Shown one piece after another: positions 36,901 to 60,984 of a stretch of 64,000 nt of DNA (positions are counted from its first letter, which is position 1; every line of letters begins with the position of its first letter). The notes under the pieces are model-generated. The model saw only the letters and a program-made list of their open reading frames with translations. It did no database searches and had not been told where the DNA came from. Source of the stretch: Tubulanus polymorphus (lineage: Eukaryota > Animalia > Nemertea); the NCBI RefSeq assembly GCF_964204645.1, contig NC_134031.1, positions 10,976,088 to 11,040,087 of the forward strand, written 5' to 3'. Both the position numbers and the translations under genes were made by a program.

Positions 36901-36933
36901 TATTATAAAACTTTTAATTTTTTTAATAATTTT

Positions 36934-37270: not shown

Positions 37271-37305
37271 ATAAATTAGTTTGTATAATATTCCAAATAA
37301 GGATT

Positions 37306-37917: not shown

Positions 37918-38997
37918 TTATTCTTTTAATTTTACTAGATAAAATCCATTCATTAAATTTATCATCATATCCTTTATATTTCACCAAAGAATACTTTTTT
38001 CCTTTAAGAGTTTTTGTTTTCAATACTTTTTCTATTTTGTATTCTATTTCATCTGGATTTGGTACAAGTGATAATTCTTGTTCATAGAAATAACCTAATA
38101 TTTCTTAACATCTTTTATATCTTCTAATTTATAAACAAAAGGTTTAGTTAATATTATCTTTTTATTCTTGAATATTTCTTCAGTAAAATTAGGGGTATAA
38201 CCTTTATAAAATGTTTTTCTATATTTAGATATTCTAACGTGTTGTCCAATTTTAAATTTAGGTTCACCGAAATCATGTGTAACAAACGCACCATATAAAT
38301 TATTCCAAACTATTTCTGAATTATCTTCTTTTCTAGCTTGTATAGGTTTCATATTTATAGAACTATGTTTAGAATTATTATAACCTTTCACTAAATCATC
38401 TAACACATCGATATATTTATATGTTTCATAAGCAGTATAATATTTCCACATTCTAGTTTTCAATGTTTTATTAAATCTTTCTATAATAGATGCTTTTTTA
38501 TCTGAATGCGTTGAAGAATATTCTACATCGTTATCAGATAATAGTTTTTAAAAATGTTTATTATAGAATTCTTTACCTTCATCAAATTGTATCTTACCTG
38601 GAATAGCTTCTTTAAATATTGATTTAAAAGCATTTGTCGCTTCTATTCCAGTTTTATTTTTGATTGGAATTGACCATGCGTATCTACTGAATATATCTAT
38701 AACATATAATATCCAGAAATATCCTTTGTTGTATTCTTCTAAATTCTTCATGTCAATTAAATCTGCTTGCCATTGTTGATCAATATATGAAATCATAACT
38801 TTCCTTGTTAAATAAGTTTTATCCATTTTCTTGTGGATTTGATATGTTGGTTGATTTTGTAGCCATGATTTTAATTCACTATATTTTATATAACCATTAT
38901 CAGATTTAATTTTACCCCATAATTCTGAAACGCTAGAATATGATACTTCACTTTCTGGGTTATAATATAAATCTCTTAAATATTGTTCTTTTTTCAT
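37918..38997 (-). pseudogene. rve integrase with C-terminal chromodomain
   Basis: QQWQADLIDM, VIDIFSRYAW, IQFDEGKEF, KASIIERFNKTLK, YKIEKVL..VKYKGY..KFNEW. Confidence 0.92.
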
Positions 38998-39003
38998 CTT
39001 ATT

Positions 39004-39890
39004 TTAATCAATTAATAATAATTTAGATTTAGTTTCAATGACTTTATGATTTGACTTATTTTCTGGTATAATAGGTTTATTATCATTGGAATCATTATTG
39101 TTATAATAAGATTTATACTTATATTTATATATTACACCGGATAATATAGTAATTGTGATTAACCCAATTGTAATATATAAGTAATTATTTCTTCCAGCAA
39201 TAGAAGAATCAGATGGATTATTATTTGAATCAATATCAGATAATTTCTGTGATTCATTTATATCAGCTAATTTCTTTTTCTTAGCTCTTTTAAATTCTGC
39301 AGATCTTTTTCCCAACTCCTTTGACCATCATTTTTGTTTTTCAGTTCTAGGCTTCTTCTCAATATCATCACTCATTTATTTTAGTTAATTTTTGTTCTGA
39401 TTCATTTTCTGTTTCGCCGTTTGGTTGTAGTACAATCCTAATTGGAATGAAGCGTAACCAACCCATTTTTGTAATTCAGTCATAACTAGGTAGTCATTTT
39501 TCAAATCACTATATAATTTATTTTCAGCATCAATTGGTATTAACCGTTTACAAAATTTTGAATAACATTTGACAATACCATCTGAAATAGAATCATTTAT
39601 TCTAGCTAATCTAGCTTCTTCATAAATCTTAAAATATTTTATTACTTTATCTGGTTTCATAGAGTATAGTTCTTGAAAAGTAATGGTCTTAGTTAAAAAC
39701 TCCTTAGATTTCCCGCCAGCAATTAGTAACTCAAGATGGTGTTTACAATATAAATAGTATTCATAATCTATATTGTTATTAACTTGAATATTATTTTCAA
39801 TTTTGGTCGGAATATCCTTATTATCACTAATGCCCAAATCATCTAATGTTTTTCAATATCTGTATTATTCTTACCCGATTTCTTTGACAT
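39004..39890 (-). pseudogene. Two conserved accessory genes (starts 39890 and 39375)
   Basis: Homologs of 7440-8339 and 60985-61890; both start at TAAATG. Confidence 0.7.
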
Positions 39891-40168
39891 TTATATTAGA
39901 GAAAAAAAGCGAAAAAAATATTATAAGTATTATAAAATGATATTAGTATCTCTTTAGGTTAATACTAGCTTAGTTAAGTTAAAGAATTCTAGTATTAGTT
40001 ATTGTTTTTTAGTATTTTTTATTTGTGATATAAAGTATTCTCTTTTGAAAAGAATTGTAAAAGAAAATATTAAAAAAAAACAATAACTAATACTAGCTTC
40101 GTTCAGTTAAAGAATTTTAGTATTAGTTATTGTTTTTTAAATATTTTTTATTTAAATTCTATTATTCT

Positions 40169-40836
40169 TTAACCACTCATTAAAGATTCAACGTATTGTT
40201 CATTATTTGGATCATTATTCCATAATTCAATAAATTTCTTTGCCTTTGTTAACTGTTCTAAATATAACTGTAAATCTAGTTTATTAGATTTGATTTTATT
40301 TTCTTTCTTTTCAAGAGGTCTTAGATTCTTCCAATTCCAAATAAGTTTTTTATTGTGTTCAACATTCATGTTAAATTTAGATATCGGTAACACGTGATCA
40401 ATATGAAAATAATCTCCATAATTATCTATATTCATTTGACTATCGAATTGAAATATAATCCGTGATTTGAGAAATTCATCTGTACAACCCAACAAATTAG
40501 ATAGTGTTTCTGAATGTGTTTCCTTGTTGAATAATTGTGTTAATCTAGATCTCAAGCATTGTTTCAATCTAAAATTAAGATCTGTTTGATATCTTTCTCT
40601 CATATATTCTGTCATATAATCATTATAGCTTCTCTATTATCTTCTCGATATTGTTGAGTATATAGTTTAAAACAAGTTTTACAGCAATATTGAAAACCAT
40701 CTTTGCTAATCTTACGCTTACTAAATTCTGTTATAGCTAATTTATCTAATTCACATTTAGAGCACTTCTTGTAGTATATATTTATGACACCAGTGTTATT
40801 TGTAATATTGATAGTTTGTGGTTGTTCTGGTTCCAT
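40169..40836 (-). pseudogene. HNH endonuclease of large-DNA-virus type with N-terminal Zn finger
   Basis: CSKC..K...EF....SKDG....CKTC; NFRL...LRSRL, LLGC, NYG..FHIDHVLPIS.F, WKNLRPL...EN..KSNK; one frameshift. Confidence 0.75.
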
Positions 40837-41963: not shown

Positions 41964-42440
41964 TCATAGTAACGGCTGTGACAGCTGTAGTTTATAGACT
42001 TGTTCAATAGTCTTTACATACGAGTAAGGGGGTAGAGCAAATCTCCCAAAGTCTTTATTCAGCGTGGGGTGTCTCAGGTATATGTAAAATGACTCCTGAA
42101 CACCTCGTTCGAACCACCGGGGTTCCACCGTCAAAATGTCTGTGTTGCCTATATCAACAGAGTGATCAGGATTGTCAGTATGGATGTGTTGGGATACCTC
42201 TGACGTCATAGAGCTAGGTCGACGGTGTTCACCAAAGCGGGCTCTCAAGGAGCGCTCAGTTTCACCAACATAACTCGCATCGCAAGATTCACATTTAACA
42301 TGGTACACCGGTCCTTTAATGCGTTCTTTAGGTACCGGGTCCTTCGGTCTAACTAATAACTGGCGTAACGTGTTCACCGGTTTAAAATACACACTAATGT
42401 TGTAGTCTTTCATCACCCGTCTGATTTGTTCAGACATGCC
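41964..42440 (-). pseudogene. Penelope-like retroelement GIY-YIG endonuclease fragment, cut by the type-B Polinton
   Basis: GMSEQIRR, VYFKP..TLR, GPVYHVKCESCDASYVGETERSL..R..EH, R...E..YI....P.LN.D.G. Confidence 0.88.
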
Positions 42441-42498
42441 AGTAGTTATATAGGGTCACTTTGGGACCGAGTGAGAAGTGAGGAGCAGTGAGGAGCAA

Positions 42499-42554
42499 TG
42501 ACGTCATCGCTGACGTCATGGATGACGTCATGGATGACGTCATTGATTACATCA
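42499..42554. promoter_or_regulatory. Array of CRE/ATF palindromes in the terminal repeat
   Basis: TGACGTCA at 42499, 42511, 42523, 42535 (12 bp period) plus a degenerate fifth. Confidence 0.6.
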
Positions 42555-42739
42555 TGTTGGTGGGGGAAAACGTGTTTGGGCGAGAATATCGATAACAATA
42601 AAGCGAAGCCATAAAACGTGTTCGGGCCTGATATTTGTGGACAATAAAAACGCGATATAAATCATGTTTAGACGTCATTTAACTCGGAGACTTCGGGCGG
42701 TTAACATCGGATCTCTTCACATCGACTATCGCGGATATC

Positions 42740-43577
42740 ATGGATTCACCAAGCGGCCGAAGCACATGTAGTTTAGAAATATGTAGTTCTCCTAAAAAAG
42801 CGAAGCTTTCACCCGCATATAGGAAAAGGAAACCGGTTCATCTCAAACTTAATTTCGGTAAGTCTATTTCTGTTTCGAGACAATATTTCGTAAAATGATG
42901 TATGTATGTTCTAAATACTCAATTTCGTAACTTTATTTTCTATAGACTCAATCGTTAATGATAACGCCGTCGATACGCCTCAGTCAATGAAAACCGTCAC
43001 ATCGTCAGATGGTCAACCCGATCCTCATTATTTAGGACAACTCGTTTACGCGTGCGTGAAAACATGGCAGGGTTCAAAACGTATCGATCTCAGGACATAC
43101 GAGTGCTGCGACCGGAAGCACCAGTTATACCCGACTAAAAACGGTATCGCGTTAGATTTGCAAGAGTGGGTACATATCGACTACTGTAAATCCGATATCG
43201 AACACGAAATTGAGCGAGTCAAACAACAAGCGGGATATGTGGGAGTTATGACTATCGGTCGTTCGAACTTTATTAAAATCTATCGTTCTAGTCATAATAG
43301 TCGTGTATACATCGATATACGGTTCTATATACTATGCGATGCGAAAGGCGAAACCGTACCTTCTAGAAAAGGTGTAAAATTATCTCTCTCTCAGTGGAAG
43401 AAATTAAAAGACATTAATTTTAGCGACGATGTACCCGAACTATCCGATATGAAACCGTGTTGGTACGAACAAAGTCATCAAAATCAAGAATATAGATGCG
43501 CATACTGCGCAAAGGACACTAGCGGAGTTCGTAATGCTCCAGAATATTCCGCATACGCTCCCAGTAAGAATAAATGA
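42740..43577 (+). CDS. Tandem PC4-like ssDNA-binding/coactivator protein, two exons (42740-42857, 42946-43577)
   Basis: RIDLRTY..PTKNGIAL..QEW and YIDIRFY..PSRKGVKLSLSQWKKL; GTAAGT...TTTTCTATAG intron joins a 39 aa basic exon in frame. Confidence 0.8.
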
Positions 43578-44013: not shown

Positions 44014-46676
44014 CTAAAAACCGTAGGGAAGCGTGTTAAATCTGTTCGTTGGATCAAAAGCCCTTTTAGTGTATACGGCGCGATATATTTTTCGCTCGTC
44101 TCTATTAAAAATGGAACATTTTTTGATGTCTCGATTTATCTTGTTTGGAATGGAAACGTACAAATGATCGTATTTTTCACCGACTATAATATCAACCATT
44201 GATTTAAAGTTGACTATTTGTTTATTTCTAAAATTCAAATTAATTCCTTTCACTTTGCATTCCGATGAGAATTTATTGTCACGCGGACTGAAAACACGGA
44301 ATGCATAGTTTTTCGGACCGGCCGAAACGAATTCCGAAATATAGGCACCATCTCCGTATTTATCTGCCAACTCATCGGTCATATCCCCTAAAAAGTTTCC
44401 AGTTGGCGGATCCCATTGATCAGGTTTAACGGTGTAAATGATTGAGTCGGTATCCGTGTAAAGGGTTCGATCCCCTAGTTTCTCCATATAACTATAGAGA
44501 ATTAGTCGAGCGCGGCTAAGGCGACGCTAGTTTTACCGGAGGATTCGACAAATTCGTCGCGTTTTCTGTAGTGCACCCTTAACACCTCTTCGTTACACAA
44601 CAGTAAATCTTGTATCTCCAAACTATCGTCTAAAAGCATGCTGTACATTTCACCGGGGTCTGAAATATATTTAGCAGTGGTTTTGTTTTCATTTTGACCG
44701 AGTTTACCCCACATGCTATTTAAACATAGTTTGGCGACAGTTCGCATGCCCTTCGCCTTCTTTATGTTATTTTCTTCGAGACGGATACCCTCGCGCTCGA
44801 AATAATCGGATAGAAATTGGTCTTTTTCGGCGCGAGTCATATCGGGAGATGGCCACCCGCTAGCTTCGGTTTTTACTTTTAGAAATTTTCCTATATAGTC
44901 TGCAAATAATCCGGTTTCGCTACGTTCCCAATTCCAAATTTCGAATATACCGATAATACGGTATCCCAATTCAACGGCTTTTTGGATCTCTAAACTGACC
45001 CACGTTCCGGTAATAGCACGTTCGTCTTCCGAGTGGCGACACCTTTCGCGTTGATTACTATCTTCAGCGCACGAGCGACACAAAGGAAAGGATAATTTGC
45101 CATTGGCTCTGTATGGAAGGATGGGTAAATATAAGCCCCGAGGTGGTAAAATTCGGCATTTAATCAACCCGTAATAATCTTTGATATCACCGAAATTTTC
45201 AGTTATAACTGTTGGGTGACCTATTGGATAGCTACAACGACTATTAACGTACGGGTATAGCGAACATATGTCAATTAGCCTTCACCTTTTTGTCCAGCTC
45301 GGGGATTCCACACTTGCCGGTGGGGACTCCTGTCGCCTGGTGCAATGCGAGAGCGGCTTCTCGTTGCGGTGATTTTTCGCATTTACGAATTATGTTATAA
45401 CGAGGGTCATTATCGGCTCGCGCCTTCGCCACGACTAGCGCCCTCGCTAGGCATAAATCGTCATCATTATTTATACTGATGACCGATTTCTTTGTTTTTC
45501 GGAACTGTTCAAAGTCAGTCGTTATCCGCTTTTGTCTAGCACCACCGAGAGGCATCCTAATGAGTGTACAATGAAAGATCAGCCCGTCCAAAGATAGATC
45601 TTCGTTAGACTGAAGAACACTAACAATACGCTCGAGTAAATAATCGATAGTGATTTCTTCTAGAGGTACGTAGAAGTATTCGATATTTCTTTGAAGATTT
45701 TCATGTTCTATCGAAATCCTCAACATATCGGTTGGCCGGGCGTCTAACATCTCACTCATTGCCGCTAGGATGTTACTTAAATACTCGCGGAGTATTGTTT
45801 CGTTATCGCGCGCTGTTACGGTATCGTCCTCTTCCTTATTACTATCATCGTCCTTGTCATTGTTGGTAATCACAATAGCCTTGAACCATTCAGTATTCAT
45901 GTTGAATTTACGGCTATGCTGCGTTCCGGTCTGTAAAATAAATATAAAATTGTTGAAAAACAATCAGGTTTTTTTTTTTTACACGATCTATCGAATTTGT
46001 TCGATAATACTTACTCTAACTAACTTAATATTCCCTCTAATAATTTCATCGGGACTATTATTATTATGACACAGACGTTTTTGTGTCGAATGCTGGTCAT
46101 TGTCGTCATCGTCCCTGGGTCGTTTCTGAGCCGTAGAACTACAATGTTCCCTATGTATTTTCAGATCGTTTATTTCGGTAAAAGATCTTGCGCAATTAGA
46201 ACATGAGAATTCCTTCGCAACCGGTCGTCGTGGTTTACACGATCTCATGTGCCGCTTAAGATTATCTTTTCGAGCCGATCTTTTACCGCAATTATTACAC
46301 TGAAATACAAATTAAATACATATAAATACAAAACGTATAACGTATATATTATGATCATGATAATATATATATATATATGTCTGAGGATTCTTACCGTGAA
46401 AGCGGTTGACGTAGATGGTTGAGGAGATCACCGAACATTTGATATAGGTTGCTTATCGTCTGGTTGGTCAGAAGTCTGAGCTATCGGTGGCACTCTATCC
46501 TGCGCTACCTGCCGATTATTACAATTTTTCATATGCCGCACTAAATTATCTTTTCTGGCGTGTGCTTTACCGCACTCCAGACATTTGAAACCCTTCTTAC
46601 CCTCATGCATCATCTCATGACGTTTGAGATTGAATTTCGAGGCGAAGGTAGCGTTACAAATGCTGCACGAATACAT
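44014..46676 (-). pseudogene. polB: Protein-primed PolB, type B, with spliced Zn-finger exons and large internal deletion
   Basis: DICSLYPY, KLCLNSMWGK, LYTDTDS, FVSAGPKNY, KVKG; N-terminal NDDDLCLARAL joined directly to motif A near 45275; introns 45931-46014 and 46300-46394. Confidence 0.9.
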
Positions 46677-46695
46677 GATCTATAAAAGAGAACAT

Positions 46696-47229
46696 CTTTG
46701 TTACTTTAAAAAAATATCCAAACCACAAATTTTATAATTGAATATTTTATCAAACCTCTTAGTATTTTCCTATTAAAAATGTACAAACCACATTTTCTAA
46801 AACTTGAAAAATTGTCAAACCGGGTTTTGTAAAATTCTAAACTTTATCATTACGATATAGTTTTTACGGATTTCGTTTTAAACAAACTTTGTTACTTTAA
46901 AAAATATCCAAACCACAAATTTTATAATTGAATATTTTATCAAACCTCTTAGTATTTTCCTATTAAAAATGTACAAACCACATTTTCTAAAACTTGAAAA
47001 ATTGTCAAACCGGGTTTTGTAAAATTCTAAACTTTATCATTACGATATAGTTTTTACGGATTTCGTTTTAAACAAACTTTGTTACTTTAAAAAATATCCA
47101 AACCACAAATTTTATAATTGAATATTTTATCAAACCTCTTAGTATTTTCCTATTAAAAATGTACAAACCACATTTTCTAAAACTTGAAAAATTGTCAAAC
47201 CTGGTTTTGTAAAATTCTAAACTTTATCA
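46696..47229. repeat. 190 bp tandem repeat, ~2.8 near-identical copies, between divergent PolB and ATPase genes
   Basis: Unit starts CTTTGTTACTTTAAAA at 46696, 46887, 47077. Confidence 0.92.
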
Positions 47230-47304
47230 ATTTTTGAAATTCAAAATTATTAAAAGTCGGCTACTACGGATAATCAAAAACCCTAAAACCCTAAAACCAC
47301 TAAG

Positions 47305-47955
47305 ATGGCAGAATACGATGGGCCTAGATATCTCGTGCATCCATTTACTATGCTAGTCTGCGGACCTACATCATCCGGTAAAAGTTGGTTTGTAAAGAAA
47401 CTAATTACCGAAAAACTTATAGAAAAACAACCGGAAAAAATTTATTGGTGTTATGGAGAGGCGCAGCCCGAAATGTTTCAAGAATTGGAAAAATTTGATG
47501 TTCAATTTGTCGAAGGATTTTCTGATGAACTATACGAAAAAATAAACGGTAGTAGTCGCACCTTAATAATAGTCGACGATCTGATGAACGAAGTTGGCGG
47601 TAATGACACCTTGGCGGCGTTGTATACTAAGGGCGCTCATCATAGAAATATTTCTATTATCACTATTGTTCAAAACTTATTTCCTAAAGGGAAAGGTTTT
47701 AGGACGATTAGTTTAAATAGTCATTATATCGCCGTATTCAAAAACGCTCGAGATAGAAACCAAATTCGGGTGTTAGCTCAACAAGTGGGACTAAAAAATG
47801 AAATAGAACAGGCTTTCAAAGATGCTACAGAAGAACCACACGGTTATTTGTTATTAGACTTTAAACCGAAAACAGATGATAAATGGCGACTAAGGACTAA
47901 AATATTTCCCAGTGATGTATACCACATCGTTTACAAAACTAAGAAAATCCATTAA
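47305..47955 (+). CDS. A32/FtsK-like packaging ATPase
   Basis: HPFTMLVCGPTSSGKS, IIVDDLM, HHRNIS...VQNLF, RTISLNSHY, HGYLLLDF. Confidence 0.93.
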   Translation: MAEYDGPRYLVHPFTMLVCGPTSSGKSWFVKKLITEKLIEKQPEKIYWCYGEAQPEMFQELEKFDVQFVEGFSDELYEKINGSSRTLIIVDDLMNEVGGNDTLAALYTKGAHHRNISIITIVQNLFPKGKGFRTISLNSHYIAVFKNARDRNQIRVLAQQVGLKNEIEQAFKDATEEPHGYLLLDFKPKTDDKWRLRTKIFPSDVYHIVYKTKKIH

Positions 47956-47989
47956 AAGAAAGCTAAGGTCTACTATTTATAAAAGGAAG

Positions 47990-48388
47990 ATGGTTCCTCG
48001 TAACAATAAATCCGTTGATCGGTTAAAAAAGTACGTTCATCATTTTCACGTGTTGGCAAGTTGTAAGAAAAAGCAACGAGAAGCGTTGATCGAATCGGCA
48101 CCAGTAGAACTAATTAACTGTATTTGTGAAATATCTAAAAACAGTTTACTGGGAAATATAGAACATAGCGACAAAGAGAAACGGGTGTTACAACAACATA
48201 AACGATACATTCGTATGTTAGCGAATAAATCTATAGCTGTTAAACATAAAAGGAGAGTTATTTCTCAAAAGGGAGGATTTCTGCCATTCATATTGACACC
48301 TCTCTTGTTGAAACCGATTCTAGAATCTATCGTGACTAATGTTTTAAGTAAAGCCGCGAACAAAGTAATAGATAAAGTTTCGTCATGA
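47990..48388 (+). CDS. Conserved Polinton basic/amphipathic virion protein
   Basis: LINCICEI..N.L.GN, QKGG|FLP adenain-type cleavage motif followed by an amphipathic helix; start uncertain. Confidence 0.7.
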   Translation: MVPRNNKSVDRLKKYVHHFHVLASCKKKQREALIESAPVELINCICEISKNSLLGNIEHSDKEKRVLQQHKRYIRMLANKSIAVKHKRRVISQKGGFLPFILTPLLLKPILESIVTNVLSKAANKVIDKVSS

Positions 48389-49071
48389 AGAACGTAGAGA
48401 AATTGGTTATTCTACCGGAAGCAATGTTACCGCAAGTACAAGCATTCGTAGCTAGTCTACAGGGAAATGAATCTATAACTAAAAAACCAGTTACCGGAAA
48501 TCCGTTAAACGATAACAACCTATCCGATGATTTGAAATATCTAAAATATAACCCGTTGCTACAGCAAGCTATACAAAAAACGGAGCACGATAAACAATCA
48601 CTACCTCGAAAAATTGAAGATATCAACGTCGTTAATAATCCTTATTCGACTGAAAAAATTGTCGAACGTATACCGGTTAAATTCCGGAATAAGTGTAAAT
48701 CGTTATAAACATTTTTCACAGAAAATCCAAACGTTTTGAGATGGAACGAAAAAGGAGAAATAATCTACAAGAATAATTTAATTCCTGGAAGCAATATTTC
48801 TGACCTCGTTTACGTTTCGTTAGTATTAACTACATTAAACCAAAGCTATATTGGATTAGAAGATTATATGTCAGCGATAAACGAACTTAATATTCCTACT
48901 AGCCTAATAAATAATAAAATGTTAAAGAGACGGCTCAAAGGCGAACTTACCGTAGATTTAGATGCGTCGTTGTCTCCAGTAAAAAAGAAGGCAAAAGTAG
49001 ATCAGCGCGGTTCCGGACTGCGTAGTAAGCGAGCTAGGAATGTCGATTTCACCAATTGGCTTAGCTTTTAA
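48385..49071 (+). pseudogene. Conserved Polinton protein, one internal stop
   Basis: ORFs 48385-48708 and 48736-49071 in the same frame; WNEKGEIIY...IPGSNISDL, ELNIP.SLI.N. Confidence 0.7.
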
Positions 49072-49168
49072 TGGCTTCAAAATGCAATTAAAATGTATTG
49101 TTCAATTGTTCGTAGTATTATTGCGCAACTGAACGTGTTCGGGCACGTTTTGATTTCCATTTGATACG

Positions 49169-49696
49169 ATGGTCGTTAACGTGGTGAACATCGTCTCTAC
49201 GGCGTGTTTGAATAGTTCATTAAATCTTACCGATGTCGCTAGAATCTCGCACGATGTAATTTACAACCCTTCCAAGTTTAGCGGGTTAATATGGAAGAAT
49301 CGTAAAATAGAAGGTAATTGTCTATTATTCGGCAATGGAAAGATGGTAATTACTGGGTGTAAAAGTAAATCTAATAGTCGACGGAGTACGAGACAATTTG
49401 CGCGTTTACTGCAAAAGATGGGATACAACGTGAAGTTAAACAACTTCAAAATACAAACAATAACCGGTGTCGTTAGAACTGGTCGGCATATTGACTTGAT
49501 GAAATTTTCGAACTATTGTTGTACAGCGGAATATAACACAGAAATACTCCCCGGTTTAGTGTATATGTGCGAAAATGGAGTTAAATGTATTGTTCATAAT
49601 GGCGGAACCATAATACTAGCCGGCGCAAAACAAACAAAAGAACTACAAAAAGCGTACGAAGAAATTTTATTCTACATCATCTTATGTTCTAAATGA
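49169..49696 (+). CDS. Divergent TATA-binding protein (TBP)-like protein
   Basis: Two TBP repeats: VNIVST..L...LNL, YNPSKFSGLI, LLFGNGKMVITGCKS, ARLLQKMG, FKIQ, EYNTEILPGLVY, GTIILAGAK....KAYE. Confidence 0.85.
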   Translation: MVVNVVNIVSTACLNSSLNLTDVARISHDVIYNPSKFSGLIWKNRKIEGNCLLFGNGKMVITGCKSKSNSRRSTRQFARLLQKMGYNVKLNNFKIQTITGVVRTGRHIDLMKFSNYCCTAEYNTEILPGLVYMCENGVKCIVHNGGTIILAGAKQTKELQKAYEEILFYIILCSK

Positions 49697-49865
49697 ATAA
49701 ATTAATAAAAGGCGTGTTATCACAAATATTTTATTGTAAAAATAAAGATGAATTGGCGAAAATTGTTTTGTTGTTGTTGTTTGGACCGAGACGATCCAAG
49801 TTTTATTTGTAAATTCAATCGAATTAACTGCGTGAGCACGTGTTGTAACGGAAATACCGTTATCA

Positions 49866-50948
49866 ATGAAGGCGGAGCTGAAAAAATTCCTAGCCAATCA
49901 GTATTATGGTATCGAAAAACCAGCCAGTTTTTCGAGCGCAAACGCTCTACACAGAATATGTCGGCAAGAAAATAAAAACATTTCGCTTAATGAGATAAAG
50001 GATTGGCTATCCGAACAAGAAGTTTACACATTACACGCCAAAGTGAGGAAAAGGTTTCCCAGAAATAAAACAATAGCCTATCGAATGAACGAACAATTTC
50101 AAATAGATTTGTGCGACGTTTCAAATATTTCCAAACACAACGACGGTATCAAGTTTCTATTGACGGCTATAGATGTTTTATCGAGATACGGTTTCGCCGT
50201 TCCTTTGTTGAATAAATTCAACTCGACAGTTGTGGAAGGATTGAAAAAGATAATTAAACATAGAAAACCTAGCGTTATACAATCTGACGCCGGGACCGAG
50301 TTCCTCGGTTCAAAAACACAGAATTTTCTCAGAAACGAGGGTATAAGTTTTTTCAGAAGTAAAAACGAAGTAAAATGCGCTATTGTCGAACGATGGATAC
50401 GTACATTAAAATCAAAAATGTATAAAATATTCTCGCATAGACATTCGTATAGATACATCGATGTACTGGACGATATAGTTCGATCATATAACAATACATA
50501 TCACCGCAGTATAAAAATGGCTCCAATAGACGTTAACCAGTTAAACGAATACATAGTTTTCAAAAACCTATACGGACCCCACCGCATAGTAAATAGAGCG
50601 AAATTCAAATTTCGAGTGGGTGATACTGTTAGAATAAGCGAACTAAAAGGACAGTTCCAAAAAGGTTATTTACCCGGTTGGAGTACAGAGTTGTTTGTTG
50701 TAACTAAAAGAATTAATCGCCAACCGTGTGTATACAAGATTAAAGATTTACAAGATGTTGAAATAGATGGCGTTTTTTACGAATACGAAATGATAAAAGT
50801 CAATAAAAGGGATGATGTTTATAAAGTCGAATCGATCATTAAATCCCGTGGAAAGGGTTCGAGAAAACAATATTTGGTGAAGTGGTATAATTACGCTGAT
50901 AAATTTAATTCCTGGGTAAACGCAAAAGATATTAAAAAACTGAAATGA
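49866..50948 (+). CDS. rve integrase with C-terminal chromodomain (intact)
   Basis: QFQIDLCD, AIDVLSRY, IQSDAGTEF, KCAIVERWIRTLK, YKVESII..YLVKWYNY..KFNSW. Confidence 0.95.
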   Translation: MKAELKKFLANQYYGIEKPASFSSANALHRICRQENKNISLNEIKDWLSEQEVYTLHAKVRKRFPRNKTIAYRMNEQFQIDLCDVSNISKHNDGIKFLLTAIDVLSRYGFAVPLLNKFNSTVVEGLKKIIKHRKPSVIQSDAGTEFLGSKTQNFLRNEGISFFRSKNEVKCAIVERWIRTLKSKMYKIFSHRHSYRYIDVLDDIVRSYNNTYHRSIKMAPIDVNQLNEYIVFKNLYGPHRIVNRAKFKFRVGDTVRISELKGQFQKGYLPGWSTELFVVTKRINRQPCVYKIKDLQDVEIDGVFYEYEMIKVNKRDDVYKVESIIKSRGKGSRKQYLVKWYNYADKFNSWVNAKDIKKLK

Positions 50949-51758
50949 TTGGTAGTGATTTTTACGTGTATCTCAAAAGCGACGCAAGCGTTGATCTTTA
51001 CCCCGATAACATTCAACATAGTTTCAAAGTTCGATTGAGAGAATCGATTTCGCTCGAGGGTAAATGGGTTTGCACCTTGCACCAAATAAACTTTATGCTA
51101 GATTTCGATAACGTCGAAGATGGACGATTTGAATTGGCGTCACCGGAGCATGGAAAACAATACTTACGTATACCGAAGGGTCGATATCACACTATTGCGC
51201 AATTAATCACCGTTATACAAACGGAAATCAACAAGTGGTTTTACGATAAAGTAATTATAGGTTTCGACGAATTAAGTCATAAAGTTAATGTGAAGTTTTA
51301 CGACGAGTGTTCGTTAACTTTTACGAACGATATAGCGTGGATTTTAGGCTTCAAATCTGGTATACCGGTAAACGATATACCTAACGACCTTCGTCAGGGT
51401 TCGAAGAAAAATGGACCATTTGTAGATAGTAATGGTACCAAAACTATTTACAAATACATCGAAGTCACAGCGTCTAGATGTGTCGATATAAACGTCGACT
51501 ATCATAATTTGATGATATATAGCGATGTTATAGAACCCCAACTAGTCGGCGATCAGAGCGCAAATCTTTTGCGTATGGTACATTTAAACACGATAAATTT
51601 TGGAAAGGTTATTGTTTAACAAATTACAATATTTTCCAGTGCAAAGGAGTAATTTTCAGACTATAGAAGTCTTTATAAGAAGAGAATCGGGTAAAATACC
51701 TGTTTTAAAAAAAGGAAAAGTTAATCTTGTTTTACATTTTAAAAAGAAAAATATATTA
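50945..51758 (+). pseudogene. Minor capsid (penton) protein, frameshift near 51610
   Basis: FYVYLKSDAS..YPDN...FKV.L, IPKGRY, LMIYSDVIEPQLVGD...LLR, LHF. Confidence 0.85.
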
Positions 51759-51760
51759 AT

Positions 51761-52168
51761 ATGAGGGCTATTTGCGAAATAGATCACGATGTCTGTTGTA
51801 GATATTACGCAAATCAAAGCGGTGCCGGAGTCGACGTGTACACATCATCGCCTATACAAGGCGGTGCTGGATTTGCTTCTGTTTTAGGCGGTCTCGCTCG
51901 ACCGGCGATACCCCTATTGAAAAATATGGCTAAACGAGCGGTGCCTCATTTACTAAGAACGGGTTTGCACGTTGCGAGCGATGTCGTAGGTGGTAAGAAT
52001 TTTGCCACAGCCATTAAAGATCGCGGATTAGAAACAATGGGTCGTATTATCCGGGGTAAAGTGCGAACCGGTACAAAACCATTAAAAGGTCAAAAGAGAA
52101 AACGAAAACAGCGGATTATTTCCACAGGCAAACGTATAAAGAGAAGTGTTAGCGGCGAAGCGTATTAG
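51761..52168 (+). CDS. Core/membrane-lytic precursor-like virion protein
   Basis: YYANQSGAG, IQGGAGF glycine motifs, amphipathic helix, basic tail; lies between penton and MCP. Confidence 0.75.
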   Translation: MRAICEIDHDVCCRYYANQSGAGVDVYTSSPIQGGAGFASVLGGLARPAIPLLKNMAKRAVPHLLRTGLHVASDVVGGKNFATAIKDRGLETMGRIIRGKVRTGTKPLKGQKRKRKQRIISTGKRIKRSVSGEAY

Positions 52169-52173
52169 ACAAG

Positions 52174-53484
52174 ATGTCGTTATTAGTACACAAAGACTCG
52201 CCCCTGTGTGTCAAATCCGAATTGGATTTGTTTACTATCCCCGGTACCCAGATAAACTACAAAGAATGCCGTTACGTTAGTTACGAACCCTCTACATCGA
52301 TCAATGATTCGGGACCTATCGTCTTCAGGATACCGAAAACAGAACAATATTTAGATTTAAACGTCACTTATTTGAAACTACAATTTAAAATAGTCAACGG
52401 TGATGGCACTAATGTGGCGCCCGATAAATACGTGTCGATGATTAATGGCGTCTACAGTTTATTTAGCGACGTTCAAATTACGCTCAATGATCGCGTCGTT
52501 ACGCACGACGGCGGATTGTACCCGTTTAAATGTGAGTTGGAAAATATGCTGAACTATAATTCCGAAACTAAAAATAGCAGTTGGCTACAATGCGAATTAT
52601 ACACTGAAGATGAGGCTGGCAAGAAAAATCATATCGACCCGACGATAGCCGGTGCTAATACCGGGCTGGTTAGAAGAAATAATTACACAAAAAACAGTAA
52701 ACTAATCTGCGCTTATTCTCGATTATACTGCGATGTAATGAGAATGAATAAAATTTTCATCAACAATACAGATATGCAAATTAAACTGAATAGATCGAAG
52801 GAATGTTTCGTTTTACTTTCTCCCGCGGAAAACGCTGATTTTCGTATAAGAATAGAAAGCGCTCAACTTTATTAGCGAAAACTAGAATTAGATAGCTCGG
52901 TTTTGGTTGCGCACGCAAAGGCATTAGAAAAAAACACGGCTAAATACTACTTTTAAAGAACCGAATTAACTTCATTGAATATTCCTAGAGGCCATAGAAC
53001 GATCGTAAAGGATTCCGTTTTTGTGGGTGAAATTCCAAAGGCTATCGTTTTAGCGCTCGTAGACGACGATGCGTTGAGCGGGAATATACGAAAAAATCCC
53101 TTTGATTTCCGAGACTTTTCATTGAGTTATGTAGGTGTTAGTGTCGATAACAATCACGTACAAAATTCGCCGTTAATTATAGACTCCCGCGGTGATGGAT
53201 GTGAAGTGTATCATAGTTTATATTTAGCTAGGGGTCTATTGTATAAAAATGAGGGTATAGGAATTAAACGAGAACATTTTAAAAACGGCAACTTTATTTG
53301 TTGTTTTAATATATCGCCCGAATACGGTGATCAACCGCACTTGTCACTTATTAAAAGGGGTTCGTTAAAAATTGAAATGAGATTTGACGAAGCTTTACCC
53401 CACAACGTCAATTTAATCGTTTACGCCGTTTTCGACGAATTATTACAAGTAACTAAAGAACGTCATATCGAAATTGATTATTAG
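52174..53484 (+). pseudogene. Major capsid protein (hexon-like), two in-frame stops
   Basis: KSELDLF..P.TQ, YLDL, SLFS.V.I.LN, NPFDF, GNFICCFN..P, G.L.IE.RF...L. Confidence 0.9.
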
Positions 53485-53489
53485 TAACT

Positions 53490-53957
53490 ATGTTGTACAC
53501 GAATCAGATTTTAGAATTTATGAAAAAAGACGAGTGTCTACGATCGTGTTTTTTAGGCGTTTTTCCGTGCGACCGACTACCCGATATACATAGTTATCCA
53601 GCTGGTTTTATAGTAAATACCGATTATCACGATCAACCGGGTGAACATTGGTTAAGCATTTATATCAATAAGTTTGGTATCGGTTACTTTTTCGATTCCT
53701 TTGGACAATTACCCAGAACTAACGATGTAATATTAGAAAATTTTCTGGACGAAAATTGTATAGATTGGAAATATAATACTAAAATGTATCAAAACGTATT
53801 ATCCGATGTATGTGGTTATTACGCGATATTTGTACAAATTTACCTATGTCACGGTTTTGAAATAGACGAAATTAAGAAATTATTGTCAAATAAAACTAAT
53901 GATAACGACTATATTGTAAAAAATTTCATCGTAAAATATTTCAAATTAGTAAAATAA
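53490..53957 (+). CDS. Adenain-like cysteine protease
   Basis: FLGVFP.D.LP, IVNTD....PGEHW, FFDSFG, YQ...SDVCGYY (His/Asp/Gln/Cys intact). Confidence 0.93.
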   Translation: MLYTNQILEFMKKDECLRSCFLGVFPCDRLPDIHSYPAGFIVNTDYHDQPGEHWLSIYINKFGIGYFFDSFGQLPRTNDVILENFLDENCIDWKYNTKMYQNVLSDVCGYYAIFVQIYLCHGFEIDEIKKLLSNKTNDNDYIVKNFIVKYFKLVK

Positions 53958-53996
53958 AAAATAGTGAAATATATCAATAAAAAAAAAAAAAAAAAA

Positions 53997-54494
53997 TCTC
54001 CCTCCCTCCCTCCCTCCCTCCCTCCCTCCCTCCCTCCCTCCCTCCCTCCCTCCCTCCCTCCCTCCCTCCCTCCCTCCCTCCCTCCCTCCCTCCCTCCCTC
54101 CCTCCCTCCCTCCCTCCCTCCCTCCCTCCCTCCCTCCCTCCCTCCCTCCCTCCCTCCCTCCCTCCCTCCCTCCCTCCCTCCCTCCCTCCCTCCCTCCCTC
54201 CCTCCCTCCCTCCCTCCCTCCCTCCCTCCCTCCCTCCCTCCCTCCCTCCCTCCCTCCCTCCCTCCCTCCCTCCCTCCCTCCCTCCCTCCCTCCCTCCCTC
54301 CCTCCCTCCCTCCCTCCCTCCCTCCCTCCCTCCCTCCCTCCCTCCCTCCCTCCCTCCCTCCCTCCCTCCCTCCCTCCCTCCCTCCCTCCCTCCCTCCCTC
54401 CCTCCCTCCCTCCCTCCCTCCCTCCCTCCCTCCCTCCCTCCCTCCCTCCCTCCCTCCCTCCCTCCCTCCCTCCCTCCCTCCCTCCCTCCCTCTC
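53997..54494. repeat. (TCCC)n microsatellite, ~490 bp, perfect
   Basis: Uninterrupted tetranucleotide run after an A tract. Confidence 0.97.
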
Positions 54495-54667
54495 TCTGTA
54501 GAGTCCTTATAAGAACTGATGGTGTAGAAGTCCTTATAAGAACTGATGATATAAGCATATAAGCGAGGAGCTTGGCGGTTCATACACTGACTCTTTCTGA
54601 GAAATTTAGGTTGGCCTTGATAAAGGCCGTTTTAATTGGTTTGTTCTTAGTTTCGTTCACCAAGTTA

Positions 54668-54674
54668 CTATTCT

Positions 54675-54709
<35 letters not shown>

Positions 54710-55048
54710 TATTCCGGGTCTATCTTCAGCACGGGCATCTAGTGTGGGCCGAGCGCCTACTCCAGGCCTTGGTAGTTCCGTTACATCGCTGTGTTGGAAC
54801 ATCATTCCGCGTCCTACGAACGGCCTGACTTGTAAAAAGGCACCGCCCGCGAACCAAAACCTCCTACAATACGGGCACGTCAGCCTTCTACGTATACCGG
54901 CCATCTTTACCAGTGTTGAATAACAGCTAACACATATATTGTTACATAACCGATGATTCGGGCATGTAACTGTTGTCAATTTTGTCTCTAAACACACCAC
55001 GCAGTCAAACTGGTCGATCGCCGTGATGGTTATCGATTGGGTAGCCAT
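54668..55048 (-). CDS. RING-finger-like protein with RG-repeat tail
   Basis: CVVC-x9-CPNH..C..IC..C...LTCPYCR; C-terminal (GR)n. Confidence 0.65.
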
Positions 55049-55889
55049 TTTTTTTACGAATGAAGTGACTAGTTTACAAGGGTCTATATACTCATAAGCA
55101 GAAAATATGATTAATAGTAATAGACATTGGTTGACACTAATTTAGTGTAAATTACCATTATTTGACATTGACTATGGAGAATTAGTTACGATTGAAACTA
55201 TGGCCGAGATAGTGATAATTGTCGTCAACGAGAACTCGATGACATATCACAAGGTTTGGTTACTTATTTCCGTCTGCGAATAGCTCTTAACCTTCTAGAC
55301 GATGAAATAACTGTTTTATCGCTATATAAACGAAAATATTATAACTACGTACTATTATTTTATAATAGAATACTGTTTTATCTAATGTATATGGTTATAA
55401 TGGACGGCTAATGGTTTATTTTGACACATCCGAGACGCTATAGTTTGAATAGGTGTTATAATTATATGGGTTAATTGGGATGGAAAAATAAAATAGGGCG
55501 TAATTTAGTAATACCGATGGGGGGTTATTTACTTAATTGAGGCAATTTTAAGATGTTTGATAAGATTATACGGGTTAGTAATTCGCTTTTAGAGGATTTG
55601 ATTTTTTATCTCATTCTATTACTCGCTGTGGACCGTGCAACCCTAATATTAACCCACTACCGACTACGACGATGGCTTTTTCCAACGACTTTTGGAAAAA
55701 AGAACAGGATGTGGAAAGAAGCGAAATTCCAATTTTTTATACCGCTACCGGTGATGTTAAATGTCACTGCTGTATGAAACAACTGGGTCACGATGAGGAT
55801 CCATTTGATTTCGTCACAAACTGTTGCGAGAAGATCATTTGCTTCAGGTGTTTCAGTGAGGCAGCGGCCGACCAGATCGACCAAGAACA

Positions 55890-56238
55890 TTTGTTTCTGT
55901 GTATCAAATGATGTATTTAAATTTCCCATTATTGGGGATCTTGTTTCAACTTGCGCACCTAAAATACATTTCAAATAAGTTCTAATTGATTGATTTATTC
56001 TTTGTATACCTGATTTAGTAAAACCTTCACTATTTTCTAAAATAAAATAAACCCAACCATTATTGTTTTCTTGTTTTAAATGATCATAAAATTTCGGTAA
56101 TTTATTGAAATTTAATGTTTCTAAATCCTTTGTTTCTATTTTACCATAACCTAATTTATTATTATAGATATTATAAAAGCTATTAGATGGTATGGGAAGT
56201 GTACAATATGCTGCAACATTTTCAGGGCAAGGAAACAA
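55890..56238 (-). pseudogene. Fragment of a type-A gene homologous to 31857-32708
   Basis: NNNGWVYFILENSEGFTKSGIQRINQSIRTYL.CILGAQVETRSPI. Confidence 0.8.
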
Positions 56239-56297
56239 TTAATTGAAAATGAAGAAGCCAATAGGGATTTCGAGTATGATGATATTGATTTTCTGTT

Positions 56298-58619
56298 TTA
56301 ATGGCCATAAGGTAATGTTTTTATACCATCATCTAAAATATGCCTTTTATCATCAAATGGATTCAAACTAGCTTTTTCAAATTCATTAATGTACATTCTC
56401 AAGATTTTCTGATCTTAAACAATTCATTTTATGTTTCATTACGATTGAGTTATATAAACACTTTATATAATCTTGAAATTCTATATGTTTATCAACCACA
56501 TGTTTTGTTATTCCTTTTAACTTTTTAGCTTCATGATCTTTTGTTCTGTAACTATACATTTTACTTCTTATCCCAACAAATTCAATCATTTCATCACCCC
56601 CTAATTCATCTTTAAATTTACCAGGAATCTTTTTATTATCATTGCTAAATAGTTCATGATCTTTGGGATAATTGCTAAAATCAAAATGATGTTTTAATGT
56701 TTTTAAGTCTTTTGTTATGTCATTTGTCTTGATTTTTAGTATGTACGCATCAGTATTGAACGCAATTAATGGAAATCCACAGCTAAATGTACCATCTTCA
56801 GTTGATAAATCATAAACATAATCTGTTGGGTTATGTATTTCAAATAAATCTTTAACTTCTTCTGTTAACTCATTTTCTACATGGCTTAAATTAAAGCAAT
56901 TTGGTTTAGATTTAATCAATCTAATATTCATATTAAATCCTAATGAATTGCATAATATATTCAATCCTGATATAGCAACTTTTCCTTTTCGAGCTAAAGA
57001 TATCGTTTTGCGGTTTTTGAAACTTTTTGAACCATCTGCAGCATAGAACCCAATGAAGAACCATTTTCTTAAATTATTTTTTGCATTTAATACATAATCT
57101 GGAACTATCTTTTCTTTTGTTGAAGTATTACTTTTCACTATTGCATGAATATAGAATTCATCATTATATTTTATAGCAAAATCTTTAGGATTATTTACAA
57201 GTATTCTATAAACTGCTGATGATTTCATAACATCCATGATTCTAAATGTTTTATGTGAAAAAACTTCTTCACAGAATTTCTTTATTCTTTCTAATAATTT
57301 TAAGTCTTGATTGCATAAATACCAACAATATTTATTACCCCAAACATAATTATACACACCTGCTGAACCATCACCCATGAAAAATCCTTTAATAAAATAT
57401 TCTTTTTCTTGTAATGTTTCAGGTTCTATATTATAAATATTATCAATTATTTCATCAAATGACATATGATTCATTCTTTGGAAAAATCTTTTATGTAATA
57501 ATTCATCTCCAATTTTTATATCAGTTGGTTTTATTTCATTGCCATTTCGTTTAATTAAACTATGATCTTCTGTAACATCTACAAACCCTAATTTTGTTCT
57601 AACTCTATAGATTTTCTTATTTATTTTATGTCTAATAATATTCTTTAATTTTTTCCATCCATTTCTTGTCCAAACATCCATTAATTCATTTATTTGTATT
57701 AATTCTTTTTCACCATATGAAATATAACATTCATTTTGTTTTGGAATTATTTCTGAAATTCTTCTTATCAATATTTTATCATTAAATCTGAATCATATTG
57801 GGGTGTCAGCTGTTACAGAATCAAAATATAATATTTCAATATGCTTTTCCCCTAAAAGTGATTGTAAAACATTATAATAAAAATCATACAATAATAATTT
57901 TGATACTTCTAAAACAGTTGAACCAATGAGTATAGGTTTATTAAATTTCATTGACGTTCTTTTTAATTTAACTGCTGTTAAATAATCTTCAAATCTTTTA
58001 TTTCCTAAATGTCTAGGGCTTGATTGTAAATGTCTTAATCTTTCAGAATTATTTACTAATTCAATATCATTTCTATTTCTAATATTTTCGCATGTTTTTC
58101 CATAAAAACTATTGTTCATTAATTTGAAGAAATCTTTTTCAAAATCTGTTTTTGATATGGTTCTCTGTTGAGTATTGAAATCTATATATTTTTCTTATCA
58201 CTTCGATTGATTAAATTCAATATATCTATGTACTTTCTTTAATTTCATTCCTTGTTTTAGATAAAATTTTAACATTCTATAATGAACAATATAATTGTAT
58301 TTATTATTTTGAGTAAGTATTAATTTTTCTGTAAAAACATGATCTTTAGGTTTTATTTTCTTCTGGTATTCACTTAAATAACTATCATCTACAGTTAAAT
58401 GTTCTGGGCAATAAGGTAAGTTTCTTGTTTTAAACTTTATATTTTCAGCATATTCTAAATCAACTACAAAGAAATAACCAATTGGTGCTTCATCTTTTAA
58501 ACTCGCAATTGCGCTTTTCCCAATCAGTTTTATCACCATTTTCAACTTCTGTTAATATAAAATTTTTGTATGGTTGAGGTTGCATCATTGCCCAACCATA
58601 TAAATTATTGGCGTCAATA
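56298..58619 (-). pseudogene. polB: Protein-primed PolB (3' half) containing a full-length intein (copy 3)
   Basis: IDANNLYG, MNNSFYGKT, YFD-[intein]-TDAY, GIRSKMYS; 5' part truncated at a SINE. Confidence 0.93.
56755..57819 (-). mobile_element. 355-codon intein with LAGLIDADG homing endonuclease; single nonsense codon at position 9
   Basis: Block A SVTADTP, block B VTEDH, LAGLIDADG blocks FIKGFFMGDG and FFIGFYAADG, block F VYDLST, terminal FN then Thr+1; absent in the 28221-28241 allele. Confidence 0.95.
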
Positions 58620-58620
58620 T

Positions 58621-58694
58621 ATGGTTTCACTAGGATTCGAACCCTCAATCTCTCACTTGGGAGTCAAACACCTTATCCACCCTGCCACAGGACA
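58621..58694 (-). mobile_element. tRNA-derived SINE head (pseudo-tRNA)
   Basis: Minus strand has A box TGGCAGGGTGG and B box GGTTCGAATCC at tRNA spacing; stems pair poorly. Confidence 0.6.
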
Positions 58695-59092
58695 GGACGC
58701 GTCTTTTATCGTTAGTGGGAGTACGCGACACGGCGAGTGGCGATTGCTACTATCATCTGGTGTTATCTTACAGTAAGTAATTTTAAGTTTTAAATAGGAT
58801 AGAGAGTGCATAGATAGAATCTACTCGGAAAGAATGAGTGTTATATTACTATCAGAATTCTACATTTCGATTAGAAGCTGTTAGTTGTCGAATCTGATAG
58901 AAGATGAATTTTATGTGCGAAAAAAAGTAAAAAATATGTAAATAATAATAATAATCAACAGAATTACAAGAGGGTTTTCGACGAAAGTCAGAAAACCCTA
59001 ATGATGATGATTATAAACCTATTATACCAGAAAATAAGTCAAATGTTAAAGTCATTGAAAATAAATCTAAATTATTATTTACGGATTAAAAA

Positions 59093-60062
59093 ATGATCAA
59101 AAAAGAACAATATCTAAGAGATTTACATTATAATCCAGAGAGTGAAGTATCATATTCTAGTGTTTCAGAATTATGGGATAAAATAAGTTATGTAGATCAA
59201 CAGTGGCAAGGAGATTTAATTGATATGAAAAATGTTAAGAAAGATGATGATGATTATTGGTGGTTATTGAATATAATTGATATTTTTAGTCGTTATATAT
59301 GGAGCTTCCCACTTTATAGAAAAGATGCTGTACAAACATCAAATGTTTGAAGAAAATTTCTTTCGGATGATAAACTAAAACCAGAAAAAATACAATTTGA
59401 TGATGGAAAAGAATTTGATAATTCACTTGTTCATGAACTCTTAGACAATCATAATATTAAATATTTTTCAACAAAATCGGATAAAAAAGCAGCAGTTGTT
59501 GAACGATTTAATAGAACATTAAGATCAAGAATGTGGAAATATTTTACAGCAAATAATACTTTTAAATGGATTGATGTTTTACGAAAATTGATGGAAGGAT
59601 ATAATAATTCTTATCATTCTTCTATTGGAATGAAACCTGTTGATGCTAGAAAACCTGAAAATGCTGAAATTATTTGGAATAATTTATATGGAGCATTTCT
59701 TGTAGATGATTTTAGTGAACCTAAATTTAAAGTTGGTCAAAATGTTAGAATTTTTAAGTATAAAAAGATATTTGATAAAGGATACGATCGAGAAATATAT
59801 ACTAGAGAAATATATAAAAAAGGTAATAACAACAAAACCATATGTCTATAGATTAGAAGATTTAAATGGTGAAGAAGTTGATGGGTATTTTTATGAAGAA
59901 GAATTGAGTTTAACTACTGAAAATCTAGAACAAGAATATAAAATTGAAAAAGTATTAAAAACAAAAACTGTTAAAAGAAAAAAATATTCTTTAGTAAAAT
60001 GGGTTGCATGGCCAGATAAATTCAATGAATGGATATTATCAAGTAAAATTAAAAATATATAA
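59093..60062 (+). pseudogene. Type-A rve integrase with chromodomain, internally deleted
   Basis: QQWQGDLIDM, IIDIFSRY, IQFDDGKEF, VERFNRTLR, LVKWVAWPDKFNEW. Confidence 0.88.
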
Positions 60063-60677
60063 ATGAATAAGGAATTATTTATATTTGAGCCTCGATATAT
60101 GTTAATTTCTGGTGTAACAAATTGGGGAAAAACTTATTTTATATTAAATTTATTAGAAACTGTTTATAAAAACTATTTTGATAATATAGTATTATTTTGT
60201 CCAAAATATGAATTTAATCAAACTTATGATAGAAATATTACTAAAAATAATAAATTTATTATATTAGATCCTAAAACAGTAAAAGAAAATTTAGATAATT
60301 GTATTAAAGTAGCAATTGATGTTTATAAAGGATCAAATACATTATTCATTATAGATGATTGCGCAAATTTACATGATTCAAAAGTTAGAGAAAGTGAGTG
60401 TATTTATGTTATTTAGCTTTTTTCTGGTAGACATTTTAGGATAACAACTTGGGTTTTAAATCAAAAATATAATTCAATTGTTAAAGATTTTAGAGAAAAC
60501 ATTAGATTTTTAGTTTTATTCTACAATAAAGATAGAAAATCGATGAAAAATGCGCTTGAGGAAAATGATATTATTCCCCATGATTTACATAATGAATATA
60601 TGGATAAATTGAAAAATAATAAAAGATCAAAATTACTATTTCGATTACAGCACCCATTTAAATATGAATTTATTTAA
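60063..60677 (+). pseudogene. Packaging ATPase, frameshifted
   Basis: GVTNWGKT, FIIDD; homolog of 37306-37917. Confidence 0.88.
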
Positions 60678-60955: not shown

Positions 60956-60984
60956 ATCACAACTAATTTTTTTTCGTTATATAA

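Follow-up and report, generated by a model that had tools for sequence, protein, structure and literature searches.

What does a TATA-binding protein (TBP) do in a Polinton, and does its DNA-binding face still suit it to the task? The question arises from a 175-aa open reading frame (ORF) in a 64-kb stretch of the genome of the nemertean Tubulanus polymorphus, the whole of which is referred to below as the window. An earlier note, made from the letters alone, had described the product as a Polinton-encoded TBP homolog with an intact two-repeat fold, in which repeat 1 keeps its Phe residues and repeat 2 has lost them. It had proposed either an altered promoter specificity or a decoy for host transcription factors, and had regarded a basal transcription factor as unusual cargo for such an element.

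The protein, hereafter mini-TBP, has the two TBP repeats and the saddle fold of the TBP superfamily (PF00352). Pfam matched TBP in 2 stretches (E 1.1e-34, 118.5 bits), and the top PDB sequence match was yeast TBP (E 1e-29, spanning residues 4-166), the alignment to which provides the yeast numbering used throughout. An AlphaFold model built on a 24-sequence alignment (pLDDT 97.1, pTM 0.87) superimposed on TBP-DNA structures with a TM score of 0.95 and an rmsd of 1.2-1.4 Å; folding from the single sequence alone gave a pLDDT of 35 and no usable model. The intact two-repeat fold and the TBP profile match are thereby confirmed. A look-up in the ESM Atlas returned generic TBP clusters only, a word-seeded protein search gave no match, and the family hidden Markov model found no second TBP in the window. 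Mini-TBP resembles cellular TBP (yeast 1ytb, human 1cdw) in fold, in sequence (33-34% identity), in the DNA face of repeat 1, and in E188, but is encoded by a mobile element, lacks the N-terminal extension, carries the replacements N159T, V161T, M104W, E93I, and F207H, and falls into a separate clade.

The surroundings of the gene are those of a Polinton/Maverick (adintovirus), with a broken family B DNA polymerase, an integrase, a packaging ATPase, and a protease that scores below the curated cut-off. The Pfam matches to the ATPase, the integrase with its chromodomain, the protease, and PC4 around the gene bear out its attribution to a Polinton. The element runs in the order PC4, polymerase, zinc-finger ORFs, 190-bp repeat, ATPase, two small conserved ORFs, and TBP, followed by the Cys-rich ORF, integrase-chromodomain, penton, major capsid protein, protease, and RING ORF (see the table). 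Its capsid genes had no Pfam match and were assigned from homologous ORFs at corresponding positions in related elements. We take the AGTAGT start at 42441 to be a Polinton terminus; no second, right-hand copy of the terminus was found within the 64-kb window. The copy is decaying: besides the broken polymerase and the interrupted ORF upstream of TBP, the putative penton frame is broken near 51613-51619, and the putative major capsid gene contains a stop at 52873-52875. Because the element copy is decaying, its TBP is probably no longer working.

Table. Features of the Polinton around the mini-TBP gene (window positions)
Feature	Position	Strand	Evidence or remark
Left end, AGTAGT start, repeated palindromic TGACGTCA-type sites	42441..42760	+	One terminus copy in window
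PC4-like protein, two PC4 domains	42987..43577	+	Pfam, E 2.4e-18
Family B DNA polymerase, broken into at least 3 frames	44014..45963	-	Pieces match an ORF of L002 that is Pfam DNA_pol_B_2
Two C2H2 zinc-finger ORFs	45988..46679	-	Pfam scan
190-bp tandem repeat, three copies (third partial)	46706..47275	.	Between divergent zinc-finger and ATPase genes
Packaging ATPase (IVa2/A32-like)	47305..47955	+	Pfam
Two conserved Polinton ORFs	47915..49071	+	Second interrupted by stop 48706-48708
Mini-TBP gene, 175 aa	49169..49696	+	Open ORF; bare two-repeat saddle without N-terminal extension
Phe37 (yeast F99), kept	49277..49279	+	Alignment to yeast TBP
Phe54 (yeast F116), kept	49328..49330	+	Alignment to yeast TBP
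Thr97-Ile98-Thr99, family-wide replacement of TBP N159 and V161	49457..49465	+	62-row alignment
Leu127 (yeast F190 position)	49547..49549	+	Private to this or a minority of copies
His143 (yeast F207 position)	49595..49597	+	Fixed in copies compared; P0002 also has His, P0003 has Gln
Small Cys-rich ORF, 75 aa, N-terminal CCCC run	49748-49975		Overlaps integrase start; no Pfam match
Retroviral-type integrase with chromodomain	49866..50948	+	Pfam
Putative penton, small basic ORF, putative major capsid protein	50945..53484	+	Position and homology to neighbors in related elements
Adenovirus-type cysteine protease	53490..53957	+	Peptidase_C5, E 7e-4, below curated cut-off; homology in relatives
RING-finger ORF	54668-55048	-	After microsatellite
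Candidate promoter motif site HWTAAAAGK	47249..47257	+	56 nt before ATPase start
Motif site	47978..47986	+	12 nt before ATG 47990; sole site with canonical TATA 5' end
Motif site	48245..48253	+	140 nt before ORF 48385
Motif site	49704..49712	+	44 nt before ORF 49748, 162 nt before integrase
Motif site	50802..50810	+	143 nt before putative penton gene
Motif site	52081..52089	+	93 nt before putative major capsid gene
Motif site	53350..53358	+	140 nt before protease gene

Several further features of the window were recorded. The left end of the element (42441-42560) is inserted in a retroelement ORF (41964-42455), presumably of a GIY-YIG/Penelope-like type, and its repeated palindromes are CRE/ATF-like. 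A (CTCC)n-type microsatellite of ~590 bp (53970-54560) lies directly 3' of the protease gene. A second, AT-rich and TBP-less Polinton family occupies 25045-40836, with related pieces at 7000-17400 and 55600-64000. Its genes often start in a TAAATG context (e.g., 28788, 30949, 31400, 32721, 35732, and 40839), reminiscent of the poxvirus late-promoter signature, and its polymerase (56386-57681 and 14471-14854) has, by eye, an apparent intein/homing-endonuclease-like insert (RVRTKLGFVDVTEDHSL ... VYDLSTED). A fragmented piggyBac-like transposase, also labeled by eye, lies at 3501-4855 on the minus strand.

Sequencing runs distinguish substitutions of the element from those of this one copy. The stretch was found in 4 of 10 listed runs, all from one study; the copies compared come from runs X1, X2, X3, and X4 and the raw-read run X5, one of which may be the source sample, and the same-species read sets are of limited size and passed a filter of 80% likeness. 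Repeat 1 keeps both Phe residues, F99 and F116, as previously described. For repeat 2, Phe is encoded at codon 127 (49547) by 17 of the 25 X5 raw reads and by the contigs of X1, X2, and X4, and Leu127 is a mutation of this ageing copy or of a minority of copies, not a trait of the element. Codon 143, covered at a depth of ~23 in X5 and also by the X2 and X4 contigs, had no listed variant. The nearest database relative, P0002, combines Phe at 127 (EIFPG motif) with His at 143, and P0003 has Ser and Gln at these positions. Canonical TBP has four intercalating Phe residues; this copy retains two of them and most copies compared retain three. Because one of the two substitutions is private, a circumstance that the earlier note had itself named as counting against its reading, loss of the repeat-2 Phe pair is not supported, and half of that note's headline residue claim is an artefact of this single copy; the other half, His143 at the F207 position, is invariant in the copies compared and common to P0002. 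Codons 43, 87, 93, and 158 also vary among near-identical copies of the gene, and 6 of 21 reads carry a 1-nt deletion at 49647. More distant same-species copies differ mostly at third positions: one set of diverged reads, comprising only 3 reads, has 14 synonymous versus 4 non-synonymous codons, and two further read sets have 5 versus 4 and 5 versus 2.

To place mini-TBP among its relatives, we took the best 150 of 3608 matches from a HMMER search, of which, with the query, 149 rows entered a first tree (2 of 151 were dropped for coverage). In this FastTree analysis, 24 short proteins including mini-TBP formed one clade; among the matches listed, P0002 was the nearest, at 47% identity. A metagenome scan with the family alignment yielded 102 confirmed loci, 80 of which were kept. 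The TBP gene lies beside homologs of Polinton integrase, ATPase, polymerase, capsid, or protease genes in 27 of the 80 loci. Among the 23 best it does so in 20, and the other 3 are contigs of at most 2.4 kb, two of them with PC4. Hence, the gene is not the one-off capture implied by "unusual cargo" but a recurrent gene of many Polinton lineages. Its position varies among loci, and in four of them (L016:2249-3091, L018:3332-4192, L019:2007-2954, and L022:1923-2753) the protein has an N-terminal extension of ~110 aa, which had no Pfam match in the two that were scanned; this lineage carries the CATAGGA motif described below. PC4-like genes are common and often adjoin TBP (L006, L007, L010, L011, L013, and L014), as well as being present in the window at 42987-43577.

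Maximum-likelihood analysis with IQ-TREE (46 rows; bootstrap not fully settled) recovered 20 Polinton-type rows as one clade (support 100/98), apart from canonical TBP (98/97) and from TRF2-like rows (100/100); a quick tree of 88 rows united 39 Polinton-type rows at an SH-aLRT of 96. The quick tree excluded L054 and L079 from the clade, and IQ-TREE included them. A six-member subclade defined by loss of F207 in FastTree disappeared in IQ-TREE, where firm grouping is confined to the window protein, P0002, and P0003. The dN/dS of TBP was 0.055-0.24 in 10 of 12 pairs, consistent with purifying selection, the other 2 pairs being saturated; integrase pairs gave 0.05-0.10. The phylogeny and the dN/dS comparison, checks of the kind that the earlier note had proposed, set the mini-TBPs apart from canonical TBP and TRF2-like rows and indicate that they are maintained. 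Judged by its sequences, mini-TBP is a member of a widespread Polinton-specific family under purifying selection. The integrase nearest to that of the window element is from L081 (100/98), and the gene appears patchy in distribution because the 12.3 kb of this sister show no TBP. L081 was the one locus recovered from IMG/VR with a capsid alignment, whereas IMG/VR scans with TBP, two TBP alignments, the ATPase, and the integrase gave no match; an ORF that looks PC4-like by eye lies at L081:11376-11885. Because mini-TBP is more similar to cellular TBP than to the viral TBPs among its structure matches (at most 20% identical), the comparison points to a cellular donor, without proving one; the trees contain no named giant-virus TBP.

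Residues of the DNA face were counted in 62 non-redundant rows out of 78 in the family, with 22 canonical TBPs, in which all counted sites are invariant or nearly so, as the reference. The kinking Phe residues are mostly retained (F99 in 53 rows, F116 in 59, F190 in 48, and F207 in 42, with Tyr in 9 more), as are N69 (58), L114 (56), and T215 (54). E188 and E186, which we take to be the TFIIB-contact glutamates, are kept in 57 and 41 rows, and E93, presumably on the TFIIA side, in only 7. N159 is replaced by Thr in 55 rows and V161 by Ser or Thr in 61, each being kept in a single row; M104 has become Trp in 50, and V203, L205, V122, and T124 are replaced in most. The window protein is near canonical in repeat 1 (N69, V71, F99, L114, F116, V122, and T124) and departs in repeat 2 at N159, V161, R196, V203, L205, F207, S209, K211, and T215, leaving the central pairs N69/N159 and V71/V161 of canonical TBP incomplete, with Thr at both N159 and V161. 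The asymmetry noticed earlier is therefore real, but it rests on base-reading sites and one Phe rather than two. The alignment indicates that the family retains the residues that kink DNA and alters those that read bases, mainly in repeat 2. In yeast TBPm3, the switch to TGTA comes about at V203 and L205, together with I194 (PMC1636458). Since the Phe residues are mostly kept while base-reading residues such as N159, V161, V203, and L205 change, an altered specificity is the better of the two earlier suggestions, and the decoy is unsupported.

TBP folds are known from other viruses and from host paralogs, to which mini-TBP bears partial likeness. KSHV ORF24, a TBP of beta- and gammaherpesviruses (vTBP), has a TBP fold proposed to read the late box TATTWAA with host RNA polymerase II (Pol II); large and composed of several domains, it makes direct contact with Pol II within a six-protein viral complex (PMC12529657). 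The likeness that we propose is one of function: mini-TBP, likewise a TBP fold encoded by a virus-like element, would read a candidate noncanonical late box with host Pol II. Mini-TBP differs in being a bare 175-aa core close to cellular TBP, without a Pol II-binding domain, and no herpesviral-type activator partners were recognized among the element ORFs scanned with Pfam; it is not a member of the herpesviral vTBP system. The TBP-like proteins of giant DNA viruses, as described by Ravarani et al. 2020 (PMC7221094), share the two-lobe architecture with key Phe residues mostly kept; they are usually accompanied by a viral TFIIB, and their TFIIB-contact residues are variable (~40% conserved). 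The mini-TBP family differs in its retention of E188 and in its low identity to viral TBPs, and no TFIIB homolog was detected among 40 ORFs scanned with Pfam, several small ones of which had no match at all. TRF2/TBPL1, a paralog of TBP, has an altered DNA face as well, but it is devoid of the Phe residues that contact TATA and is unable to bind TATA (PMC4422821), whereas the mini-TBP family mostly keeps them and did not group with TRF2-like rows. For Polintons, in the portion of Starrett et al. 2021 (PMC8502044) that was available, TBP occurs as a label in the legend of Fig. 5, for MELD viruses with adintovirus-like PolB; the text does not analyze this TBP-like gene of a Polinton-type genome, and one supplement file contained 0 matches to TBP. 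This legend label was all that a literature search, confined to papers outside subscription, found on Polinton TBPs or such promoters, and the papers found did not address the timing of Polinton/Maverick capsid genes.

If mini-TBP reads its own sites, a shared motif may precede the element's genes. A de novo search looked for 6-8-mers that cluster in sense orientation in the 200 nt preceding hand-picked gene starts, and we asked how often random sets of ATGs matched the best score. The top k-mers were TATA-like in all 6 long TBP-bearing elements: TAAAAGG in the window (6 of 8 sites), GTAAGAA in L002, TAAGAAG in L007 and L010, CATAAGAGG in L011, and CATAGGA in L018. Their position was significant in 4 of the 6, with the best score reached in 0/200 null draws for L007, L010, and L018 and 3/200 for L002; the window motif was borderline (14/200 after correction) and that of L011 non-significant (96/200). 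Upstream k-mers of L020 and L022 were non-significant (55/100 and 86/100), and the best k-mer of L043 was a different repeat. The two TBP-less controls, L081 (60/200) and the AT-rich Polinton of the window (55/200), were non-significant; one of them is possibly incomplete, and in the other, a degraded element, TAAAAGA likewise heads the ranking, non-significantly. Strand bias recurs in relatives (15 versus 0 in L001, 6 versus 0 in both L003 and L011), and CGTAAAC recurs before genes in L017, L020, L041, and L043. In several relatives, TBP, PC4, or polymerase genes follow, by eye, a canonical TATA and then TCATT/TCACT ~25-30 nt further on.

Within the window element, HWTAAAAGK precedes seven packaging or structural genes, in three cases with 140-143 nt between site and ATG, and is absent before TBP, PC4, and polymerase. 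It was not found in the 190-bp repeat or at the terminus, the two sequences that the earlier note had named for binding assays; the candidate target is this short motif instead. Over the AT-rich window as a whole it is not enriched (21 observed versus 29.6 expected); on the plus strand of 47101-53960 it occurs 7 times versus 1.8 expected (0/500 shuffles), for a pattern chosen after the fact. Motif-to-ATG distances range from 6 to ~180 nt, some too short for a -30 TATA box; some sites lie inside Lys/Arg-rich coding tails or overlap stop codons, and the one at 49704 overlaps an AATAAA that is possibly the polyadenylation signal of TBP instead. The window motif has a canonical 3' half (TAAAAG) and variable first bases, and the family motifs differ from TATA mainly at the 5' side. 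TATAAGAAG of L007/L010 and the site at 47978 could be read by host TBP. The register of the motif against TATA is ambiguous, two registers being possible, so that any pairing of residues with bases is tentative.

Taken together, the fold, the Polinton context, the single clade, the low dN/dS, the residue pattern, and the strand-biased motifs lead us to read mini-TBP, with a probability of about 0.6, as a genuine TBP-fold protein of a Polinton-specific, selected family that likely serves as the element's own promoter-recognition factor; its DNA binding, target, late timing, and host partners are inferred. By analogy with herpesviral vTBP, it likely works as a late-gene promoter factor. Host machinery would first make mini-TBP early; the protein would then bind a TATA-like box peculiar to the element, upstream of its packaging and capsid genes, where it would recruit host TFIIB and Pol II, and the virion genes would be transcribed late from these variant boxes. 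A bolder version, which we hold tentatively and at somewhat less than even odds, is that a clade of animal Polintons possesses an orthogonal late switch, derived from one ancient TBP capture that was cut down to the core, with base-reading residues co-evolving with lineage-specific boxes (TAAAAGG, CGTAAGAAG, CATAAGAGG, CATAGGA, and CGTAAAC).

Three other functions would suit a TBP fold in this setting. As a decoy, mini-TBP would have given up DNA binding and would soak up host TFIIA, TFIIB, TAFs, NC2, or Mot1/BTAF1, damping host transcription. The loss of F207 in the window protein and its nearest relatives, the changes at R196, S209, K211, and T215 in the window protein, and the conservation of the basic-helix residues R75 and R79 and of the TFIIB glutamate are compatible with this role; yet the four Phe residues, N69, L114, and T215 are kept family-wide, few members retain E93 on the TFIIA side, most copies of the window element still encode F190, and the lineage-specific motifs are left unexplained, so that we consider a decoy unlikely. 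An architectural role, in which mini-TBP bends DNA for replication, packaging, or integration and the motifs are binding or packaging sites, would fit the frequent adjacency to PC4, likely a single-strand DNA-binding protein, and the irregular spacing between motif and ATG. It is improbable given that the motifs sit in sense orientation shortly before gene starts rather than at the termini, and that the TFIIB-contact glutamates are kept.

Mini-TBP might instead have an ordinary or relaxed TATA specificity and supply extra TBP activity outside the control of TFIID, with germ cells and silenced DNA as conceivable settings; the motifs would then be normal TATA variants. Wild-type yeast TBP prefers TATATAAG (PMC1636458), boxes of this type occur in the TBP-less L081, and the repeat-1 face of the window protein is canonical; but CGTAAGAAG, CATAAGAGG, and CATAGGA lack the 5' half of TATA, and the loss of N159 and V161 from almost every row suggests that selection has favored another site, which makes this account, too, a doubtful one. 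Finally, the gene could be a passenger decaying neutrally. The private Leu127, the deletion at 49647, the breaks elsewhere in the element, and the sister without the gene are in keeping with such decay, but dN/dS is low across lineages, and length and fold are conserved in more than 60 divergent members. For the family, neutral decay is largely refuted; it holds only for individual dead copies and is, as a general account, very improbable.

The preferred reading, a promoter-recognition factor of the element's own, shifts the weight away from this copy: the family-wide residue pattern and the link to promoters matter more than its apparent loss of a Phe pair. The family offers many natural TBP variants at residues known to retune TATA recognition and bears on the TBP-DNA recognition code; were the orthogonal switch true, it would amount to a natural library of altered-specificity TBP-promoter pairs and to sequence evidence for a virus-like early/late cascade in Polintons. 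A self-encoded TBP with a matching box would give Polintons an early/late program comparable to the one in large DNA viruses and would strengthen the case for regarding them as viral.
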